A stretch of DNA of 64,000 nucleotides, from assembly GCF_054482525.1 (NCBI RefSeq), contig NZ_CM137006.1. One strand, 5' to 3'. A program made the position numbers. This document shows, piece after piece, positions 3,001 to 4,768 of the stretch (position 1 is its first letter; every line of letters starts with the position of its first letter).

Positions 3001-4768
3001 AATGAAGATTCAATTTTGCAGCATTCATCACAAAATAGAAATTTAGTATTTTATGTCAGAATACTTCACATGATAATAAAAACCTGTCTGGATTTACTGC
3101 ATGGCCAGACATTACAAAATACAAACGCCATAAACTTCATTCAGCCTTCTTGCTGTCCGGTAACGGAGGCTGTTTTTTCGTTACGCCTTTCCCCGGCAGC
3201 ATCAGTAGCAGTAATTTATAGATTCTACGAACTGAGACTGTCTGTCCGGGGAGAACATACGCATCCCGGCGCAATGCTCCGGTCATTTACAACCTGCTTC
3301 TGATCATAAACGCCACGATCCTTGGCTCTCACAGATTTCGGGAGATGAAAGTTAGTTTACAGGCAGAAACCAGTCACAATATTGACATGAGAAAGATTTT
3401 CTGTTAAACAAAAAAATACATGAAATGATATAACATCACAAACTGGAGTTTTTATGGCAGAATCCGGGTTTATTTCTCTCGAATTATCCCGCTCACAGGC
3501 GCCTGTTACAATTAGCAAGACAGCTATACTCTTTGCAGAAGCAGACAATGATACCCCGGAGTCAACTCATCTACATTGCGTTGGTGGTATCACTCATACC
3601 GTAAATGGTGTTTTTAACGATATTGCAGAATTACTTCCGCGATTCATTAAGACGCACCGTCGGGATAATGGTCAACCCGCAGTGGCTATCCATGACTGGA
3701 ATGTTTCATACATTGAAAAAGGCAACGATGCTTCTGCTATTGTTTACTTCACAGAATCAGGCTCAAGTATAACCGTCCGTGAATCTTACGAAGACATAAT
3801 AGCAAAGTTTCACGCTCTTTAGTCAACACCTGTGCTGAGAATTAAAGCAGGGGCAGGATACAATTATCCTGCCCCTGCCGTTAAAGATTATACAATGAGT
3901 ATTACTTTTTAATATTTCGGTGGTGGGTTATAAAGATGTGGTCTCCTCAGAGGATCGTTTATGGCAGATAGTGCAGATATTGCTTATGAAAATGAACAAT
4001 TCAGCATGAGCATCAGACTAAAAAATCGTATCCGGAATAGACTCCCTGAAACGGGATTCTGCTATAACTGCGGAGAACCTGTTAAGACAGGATTGTTTTG
4101 TGATGGTGACTGTCGGGAAGATTATGAGAAACGTGAACGATTTGGAAAAATAAATACTGACAATGTTTAAAAGCAATACAATTACTGATATCTCTTTCAG
4201 ACTTCAGAATTAAAGAAAACTGCCCGAATGTTATCCGGAAAGCAGCTGTAATACCTCATTAACTGTTATCACAAATAAAACGCATACCTGTTCCATATGA
4301 AATTTGTCACGCCTGACTACATAACATTTATTATCCGGAGCACTGGGATGCCCGTGACACAGCATGCACAGAAATCCCCGTCGCAACAGCCTTTATCAGA
4401 AAACCATCTTTTTACCGGTCTATGGTGTTGCAGAGATATTTAATACTGACGCCGCGCATACCATTTTTCTCCATCGCATTGTAAAGATGCGCACATACCG
4501 TCTTCATGGTTATCCCCAGCCGGTCTGCCAGAAAGGTAAACCCGTAGTCATGGAAAACAACCCCGAAGACCACCACCATCTCTGTCCGGGTCAGTGGTCT
4601 TGCCGTATGTCCGAACAGCCACGCCCCACGGCGGATGGTTTGCCTGATATCTGTCAGGCATCTCACAGAGGAAACAGGAATGACAAGAAACCGACGCCCA
4701 CAGAACATAGAGTATGTAAGCCTTTCCAGATTACGGTCACAGAGAATCACATAACTGTCTTCGGGAAG

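Follow-up and report, generated by a model that had tools for sequence, protein, structure and literature searches.

Results

The sequence analysed here is a 64,000-nucleotide stretch of contig NZ_CM137006.1 (RefSeq assembly GCF_054482525.1), to which we refer as the window, and its first 9 kb are an island of uropathogenic Escherichia coli (UPEC). Within these 9 kb an sfa/foc (S/F1C) fimbrial operon occupies the minus strand, with its PapB-like regulator at 1981-2310 (Pfam PapB, E 7e-37), and further right, on the plus strand, lies sfaC, which encodes a PapI/FaeA-family regulator (2666/2726-2950; Pfam FaeA, E 1.5e-29). sfaC is the left neighbour of two small open reading frames (ORFs) on the same strand, both with an ATG start: ORF1 (3454..3822; 122 aa; RefSeq CDS WP_000841004), which encodes an orphan beta-rich protein, and ORF2 (3961..4170; 69 aa; RefSeq CDS WP_001304636). 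A preliminary description of this DNA had placed two small genes at 3454-4170, between the fimbrial regulator and an insertion sequence (IS), and both the extent and the location were borne out: ORF calling returned exactly this span, with sfaC to the left and a LuxR-type pseudogene followed by an IS3 element to the right. In E. coli both genes are annotated as "hypothetical protein" only. Judging from sequence comparison, ORF2 is a TraR homolog, a compact variant of the TraR branch of the TraR/DksA family.

ORF2 and the TraR family

Residues 1-60 of ORF2 match the PHROG family phrog_54, "DksA-like zinc-finger protein" (E 2.2e-8). When the ORF2 family alignment (A3) was compared by hhalign with the single TraR sequence of the F plasmid, itself verified against PDB 5W1S chain M, the match (P 9.7e-5) spanned the N-terminal helix and the first CxxC; when a broader ORF2 alignment (A8), to which four phage proteins contribute, was set against a canonical TraR alignment of F TraR and six phage homologs (A7), hhalign returned a probability of 97.2% and an E-value of 3.3e-11 over 60 columns, with residues 1-59 of ORF2 lying on residues 1-69 of TraR. 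The N-terminus of ORF2 reads MADSADIAY, and M1, D3, D6 and A8 are invariant among 15 family members, the relatives that keep D3/D6/A8 sharing only 38-63% identity; the codons for D3-S-A-D6-I-A8, aligned to D3/D6/A8 of TraR, are at 3967..3984 (+). A DxxDxA motif at approximately residues 3-8 is a feature of the TraR N-terminal helix, and both TraR and lambda Orf73 require D3/D6 to act on RNA polymerase (PMC9239242). The first zinc knuckle, C34-Y-N-C37 (4060..4071, +), has invariant cysteines and aligns to C37/C40 of TraR; the second, C47-D-G-D-C51 (CxxxC; 4099..4113, +), lies at the start of the C-terminal helix, aligns around C58/C61 of TraR and is immediately preceded by a nearly invariant F46. 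An AlphaFold2 (AF2) model of ORF2 (predicted local distance difference test, pLDDT, 71) comprises a helix at 4-21, the zinc region and a helix at 49-66, the latter predicted at a pLDDT of ∼76-79 and aligning to the TraR C-helix. The modelled elements thus follow the order of TraR, in which N (2-27), G (28-57) and C (58-73) succeed one another and the zinc site bridges G and C (PMC6970531).

ORF2 therefore resembles TraR (F plasmid TraR, lambda Orf73, P2 Orf82, VP882 Orf61; PF01258) in its length of ∼70 aa, in an N-terminus of the form M-x-D-x-x-D-x-A, in the succession of a helix, a four-cysteine zinc site that extends from the globular part into the beginning of the C-terminal helix, and a second helix, and in belonging to mobile elements, in phages within early regions. 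The phrog_54 proteins Erwinia phage phiEt88 gp35, Pseudomonas phage PPpW-3 gp28 and Pantoea phage PA-1 ORF004 share its compact architecture and have the motif FC-x3-C-R-x-D-x-E in common with it, at 38-48% identity over ∼60 aa; these phage genes are in early operons next to replication and recombination genes, whereas E. coli ORF2 is solitary, in the flank of an island and beside a fimbrial regulator.

The zinc site is where ORF2 departs from TraR. Its four cysteines (C34, C37, C47, C51), all invariant, are spaced CxxC-x9-CxxxC, whereas the canonical C4 finger of the TraR family has the spacing CxxC-x17-CxxC in the globular domain (PMC9239242), an arrangement kept by all of the TraR homologs described in PMC9239242 and PMC6970531. 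The alignment places a deletion of 7-8 residues in ORF2 at the canonical "PIPEARRxxxPG" loop, a segment in which I44, R48, R49 and G54 are invariant in A7 and which is within the TraR domain that contacts the beta' rim helices; in addition, the distance from D3 to the first cysteine is three residues shorter. Of the TraR/DksA-type zinc finger that had been proposed for ORF2, the homology was thus upheld (by phrog_54 and the profile-profile match) and the canonical C4 spacing was not.

Several observations weigh against reading ORF2 as a protein of the TraR type. The Pfam hidden Markov model (HMM) zf-dskA_traR (PF01258), the kind of check that the preliminary description had proposed for a C4 finger of this family, matches 0 of 11 family members (ORF2 and 10 relatives), because of the CxxC-x9-CxxxC spacing and the missing "PIPEARR..PG" loop; direct HMM assignment was accordingly abandoned, and the question was settled by profile-profile comparison instead. 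The NCBIfam models for dksA (TIGR02420) and TraR (PRK13715) score far below their cut-offs and cover the N-terminal 26-41 residues only (E 0.011 and 0.087). Searched against the sequences in the PDB, the ORF2 family HMM retrieves neither TraR nor DksA, and phmmer and the family HMM together give only chance zinc-finger matches (bL32m, MYND). Foldseek with the ORF2 model found nothing significant in the PDB, DksA appearing only at E 1.5 and the YacG, MYND and TRASH zinc ribbons scoring like DksA. Finally, ORF2 lacks the most conserved segment of the canonical TraR globular domain, and for this reason its binding to RNA polymerase is not assured. Pfam DUF2116 (PF09889) matches residues 34-60 only, at best with 19.3 bits (E 1.1e-3) and hence below its gathering score of 26.8; such weak matches to DUF2116, YacG and MYND arise because the FC-x3-C knuckle of ORF2 resembles those of FCS/TRASH/YacG zinc ribbons. 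In two distant metagenomic relatives (P0036 and P0037) the DxxDxA tip and the FC-x3-C knuckle are retained and the loop is long (CxxC-x19-CxxxC); both proteins may represent an intermediate stage that links canonical TraR with the compact form.

Relatives of ORF2 were found in Salmonella, Citrobacter and metagenomes (40-63% identity) and in phages (38-48%). The compact variant is present in 44 phage records and canonical TraR in 276, and the phage genes of the ORF2 type are usually in early regions beside exo/RecT, single-stranded DNA-binding protein (SSB), replication or integrase genes. The term "phage-like", which had been given to both genes, is thus apt for ORF2; for ORF1 it describes the context only, in that relatives lie at prophage edges. 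Relatives of ORF2 that are unaccompanied by ORF1 are found at loci with FimB-like recombinases, by a two-partner-secretion adhesin of Salmonella salamae and in a P4-like element. On a Salmonella plasmid and in Citrobacter freundii (loci L008, 8001-8920, and L007, 8001-8945), the ORF2 relative is 165-190 bp upstream of a FimB-like recombinase gene of 183 codons in the same orientation, and further downstream come an AraC regulator, another recombinase, a CaiF/GrlA-like regulator and a chaperone-usher operon; a metagenome contig (L018, 3442-6498) has a related, looser layout, the recombinase being ∼2.2 kb from the ORF2 relative. The sole relative inside a P4-like element is from Salmonella (58% identity), accompanied by Phage_ASH, D5 primase, SSB and ProQ/FinO genes, the ProQ/FinO gene directly preceding it. 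Across species-representative genomes only two distant loci were recovered (Ramlibacter and Hydrogenovibrio), too few for the link to fimbriae to be tested statistically.

ORF1, an orphan with a tentative fold

No match to ORF1 was found in Pfam, NCBIfam, PHROGs, PADLOC, a phage genome collection or the PDB sequences, and an exhaustive HMMER profile search of 1.84 billion cluster representatives yielded only 8 relatives and no link to a remote family. Full-length relatives without frameshifts are from Salmonella (67% identity) and from Yersinia entomophaga and Y. nurmii (54-57%), and there are distant forms at 41-43%. The earlier statement that ORF1 has no recognisable domain thus holds for sequence libraries, and comparison at the level of the fold points weakly to LytTR. 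The UniRef label of the Y. nurmii relative is "HTH LytTR-type domain-containing protein". The AF2 model of ORF1 has five strands, a helix, five strands and a helix, an order that would correspond to that of a LytTR domain such as the one of AgrA. When the ORF1 family was aligned by hhalign with three LytTR sequences from the PDB, the alignment was collinear over 78 columns, with LLPRFIKTHR opposite LLPKDSFIRCHRS.

To be set against this are the significance of that alignment, which is lacking (P 0.12), the quality of the ORF1 model, which is medium only (pLDDT 67), and a Foldseek search of the model against the PDB, in which nothing was found. Pfam LytTR (PF04397) matches 0 of 12 family members even at E-values up to 10, and the ORF1 family HMM does not retrieve AgrA or ComE from the PDB sequences. 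LytTR domains (AgrA, ComE; PF04397; the LytTR-like RemA) have no significant sequence similarity to ORF1, which also differs from them in being a stand-alone domain, in an extra C-terminal helix and in an insertion after the HR motif. Our best guess for ORF1 is a regulator that binds DNA through a stand-alone, LytTR-like domain, and we would put the chance that it is right at roughly even.

One named relative of ORF1 is Yen6 of Y. entomophaga MH96 (PL78_03730), with 56% identity over the full length of ORF1. Like ORF1, it is small and stands alone where a virulence cluster has its regulatory edge, and its neighbours are yen7, which encodes a PhoB-like regulator, together with chi1 and the genes of the Yen-Tc toxin; it differs in its linkage to a toxin complex instead of fimbriae and in having no ORF2 partner. 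Two papers on Yen7 make no mention of Yen6, and searches of the literature for either gene (papI/TraR, downstream of papI, Yen6) found nothing relevant. Other relatives of ORF1, likewise without ORF2, occur in prophage settings (next to tail or tail-fibre genes in Salmonella, a lysis cassette, and P2/Mu-type tail genes), on an IncFII plasmid, beside an operon for type-1-like fimbriae that is accompanied by an integrase, and in a Yersinia island. The ORF1 family is very small, and prophages, plasmids and islands carry it as cargo. The Salmonella relatives (loci L020 and L021, 7001-7366; L005, 8001-8369) are each followed by a convergent DUF1353 gene amid prophage tail-fibre remnants. In L020 and L021, genes with the Pfam domains Exo_endo_phos, Pertussis_S1 and Glyco_hydro_108 are a few kb away, a combination that suggests an islet of the typhoid-toxin type.

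Distribution, selection and the island flank

A 1-kb block containing both genes (3300-4300) is present at at least 95% identity in 395 of 5426 complete E. coli genomes (7%), and UPEC 26-1 and further clinical isolates have it at 100% identity. Comparisons between genera gave pS (the proportion of synonymous differences) of 0.85-0.95, at which synonymous sites are saturated, and pN (nonsynonymous) of 0.20-0.34 for both families; the ratio of nonsynonymous to synonymous substitution rates (dN/dS) of ORF2 was 0.12-0.20 wherever dS could be computed. Within E. coli, the pap-linked and foc-linked alleles are just 1-3 substitutions apart, so that selection is not measurable there. The ribosome-binding sites of both ORFs are preserved. 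ORF1 and ORF2 are genuine, conserved genes on which purifying selection is strong across genera.

In UTI89 the pair comes after papI, and in the window after sfaC. A papI/sfaC-like region was found in 1333 genomes (1848 places), and in only 371 of these genomes does the homology reach into ORF1, most pap-family loci losing it near window position 3305. Between the window (2940-4460) and the UTI89 locus (7640-9620), identity is ∼89% over 2940-3140 and ∼99.5% from 3140 to 4460; this sharp rise near 3140 implies that the foc operon sits where UTI89 has its pap operon, in one and the same slot of the island, and the alignment places a recombination junction shortly after the papI/sfaC gene, with both ORFs in the shared flank. 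The flank is scarred. UTI89 and many genomes of the ST131/ST95 sequence types carry a ∼460-bp insertion of transposase and endonuclease fragments, an IS remnant, just after ORF2 (window 4254/4255; ∼8955-9415 of the UTI89 locus), which is absent from the window; the window, for its part, has an IS3 within the LuxR gene.

A hairpin resembling a terminator, with a U6 tail, is located at 3142-3178, 3' of sfaC. Because the pair lies beyond it and is present at only about a quarter of pap/sfa/foc loci, we regard the two genes as cargo of the island flank and not as members of the operon. Membership of the sfaC/papI transcription unit or of a pap "cassette" was rejected on account of the hairpin and the loss of homology at ∼3305. 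We also rejected an obligate pair or a module of the toxin-antitoxin kind, since ORF1 and ORF2 are separate in every non-E. coli locus examined, occurring apart in Salmonella, Citrobacter and Yersinia. The preliminary description had further suggested a P4/CP4-like module, which the neighbourhood does not support: within the window the pair is flanked by sfaC, the LuxR pseudogene and IS3, and no integrase or P4-type gene adjoins it. For the same reason the proposed origin of the genes, as remnants of the element that delivered the island, is at most plausible, in so far as cargo of a former mobile element fits.

Other features of the region

Shine-Dalgarno sequences can be read 5 nt ahead of the ATG of ORF1 at 3454 (GGAG, 3445..3448, +) and 6 nt ahead of that of ORF2 at 3961 (GAGGA, 3950..3954, +). 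ORF1 would need a promoter of its own because it is downstream of the sfaC terminator-like hairpin, and a candidate sigma-70 promoter, a consensus match only (TTTACA-16-AATATT, 9 of 12 positions), is present at 3356..3383 (+). The gap between the ORFs contains an inverted repeat of two perfectly matched 14-bp arms around a 4-nt loop (3847..3878; folding dG -28.8 kcal/mol, z -6.2), identical in UTI89. On the plus strand this hairpin has no U-tract, and its T-rich tail is on the minus strand, where a scan scored it as terminator-like; it could be a 3' stabiliser, a weak terminator of ORF1 or a terminator for the minus strand. The G+C content of the region is 40-42%.

Between sfaC and ORF1, Rfam RF02876 ("AS-pc02, antisense to pHK01_099") has a full-length match at 3101-3279 (+; 63.2 bits, gathering score 40; E 2.4e-14), which covers the terminator-like hairpin (3142-3172) and its U6. 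The family is named after plasmid pHK01, and the copy in the window is in a segment that most pap/sfa/foc loci of the chromosome have in common; in PLSDB, only 4 plasmids have a copy at 93% identity or more. To the right of ORF2, the LuxR/GerE-type pseudogene (4412-4780, -) retains its C-terminal 119 codons and is cut by the IS3 (4777-5990, -). In UTI89 the gene is intact (a 158-aa ORF, 99% identity over 119 aa). A second fimbrial operon of the chaperone-usher type (6620 onward) lies downstream of it, and the gene may be the lost regulator of that operon. The remainder of the island (4652000-4701900 in the UPEC 26-1 record, approximately 13,500-63,400 of the window) carries hlyCABD, cnf1, the fec operon and many IS copies, together with an H-NS-family gene, a ProQ/FinO pseudogene and a YagK/YfjJ-domain gene.

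Discussion

On balance, we lean towards the view that the flank of this UPEC island holds two real accessory genes, each mobile in its own right, of which ORF2 is TraR-like and ORF1, as a guess, LytTR-like. We infer from this that ORF2 binds RNA polymerase and ORF1 binds DNA, and any target genes would be inferred in the same way. By analogy with TraR, the N-terminal helix of ORF2 would enter RNA polymerase's secondary channel and place D3/D6 near the active site, so that ORF2 would change the kinetics of initiation without guanosine tetraphosphate (ppGpp), as do TraR of the F plasmid and Orf73 of lambda. Because the zinc domain is shortened and the loop of the domain that contacts the rim helices is absent, its affinity or its effects on promoters may differ; altered contacts of the globular domain might shift promoter-specific effects, activation in particular. 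ORF1 would act as a small regulator that binds DNA. It is possible that one or both act on the neighbouring fimbrial genes.

Alternatively, ORF2 could be a generic zinc ribbon of the FCS/TRASH/YacG/DUF2116 type with another role, such as binding DNA or an enzyme (as YacG binds gyrase), its TraR-like N-terminus being vestigial. The CxxC...FCxxxC pattern and the lost "PIPEARR" loop fit this explanation, as do weak Pfam matches, shown by 8-10 of 11 members, to DUF2116 (described as a "probable treble clef"; E 1e-3) and to DUF7576, a GenBank record that names a fragment "DUF2116 family Zn-ribbon", and Foldseek matches to YacG (TM score 0.41-0.55 over 36-37 aa) and to MYND and TRASH domains. However, all of these Pfam matches are under the curated cut-offs, the profile-profile match to TraR spans the whole protein (97%, E 3e-11), and a vestigial tip would not have kept M1, D3, D6 and A8 invariant at 38-63% identity; we therefore think a generic ribbon unlikely, if by no means far-fetched. 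For ORF1, a small ligand- or protein-binding domain of beta-sheet plus helix (START/SRPBCC-like or similar) in place of a LytTR-like DNA binder is a possibility to which we attach a low probability. Lower than an even chance by far, too, is the idea that both genes are inert in E. coli, hitch-hiking remnants that are conserved only through the youth of the island. Scars on both sides (the truncated LuxR gene, IS3, the IS fragments of UTI89), the carriage of the pair by only 7% of genomes, alleles so similar that selection within the species cannot be measured, and the want of any literature found on the pair are all in keeping with it, yet hundreds of genomes keep both genes intact next to decaying neighbours, the ribosome-binding sites of the two are preserved, and purifying selection across genera is strong for both families.

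One could also envision that the pair is dedicated to regulating the neighbouring pap/sfa/foc operon or, more generally, the phase switching of fimbriae, with ORF2 contributing an input akin to that of ppGpp/DksA and ORF1 one through DNA binding. Such a role would account for the position of the pair directly downstream of papI (UTI89) or sfaC (the window) in ∼371 genomes, for the ORF2 relatives of the Salmonella plasmid, Citrobacter and the metagenome just upstream of FimB-like recombinases and chaperone-usher operons, and for the one ORF1 relative that abuts a type-1-like fimbrial operon; it would also agree with a known action of ppGpp, which, according to PMC8777976 (citing Aberg et al. 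2006), acts on a fimB promoter and on type 1 fimbriation. But about three-quarters of the genomes with a papI/sfaC-like region are without the pair, sfaC has its own terminator-like hairpin, ORF1 and ORF2 are not co-inherited outside E. coli, and a P4-like element, prophages and an IncFII plasmid harbour further relatives. Moreover, although ORF2 relatives recur by fimbrial switches, the association is incomplete and the independent events are few, because the loci of Salmonella, Citrobacter and the metagenome appear to share a single module. We thus consider a dedicated fimbrial role improbable. More doubtful still is a wider proposal: that a compact class of TraR-like secondary-channel proteins, devoid of the loop that contacts the rim helices and Si3, has been captured repeatedly at the regulatory ends of adhesin loci (papI/sfaC in UPEC; FimB-type recombinases in Salmonella and Citrobacter), where it would feed a ppGpp-independent, "stringent-like" input into phase variation, and that virulence clusters acquired by horizontal transfer are regulated by a new stand-alone, LytTR-like protein, represented by ORF1 and Yen6.

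Returning to the two accessory genes as we read them, ORF2 is an uncharacterised variant with a compact zinc site, and ORF1 is an orphan with a tentative fold assignment only. The pair stands beside papI or sfaC in several hundred of the UPEC strains sequenced, UTI89 and ST131 genomes among them, and its effect on fimbrial phase variation or virulence could be tested cheaply; should there be none, two "hypothetical proteins" would still be better annotated. Through proteins of the TraR type, mobile elements reprogram host transcription without ppGpp, and a natural variant that has the DxxDxA tip but not the loop would be a useful probe for separating the contacts that drive inhibition from those that drive activation.

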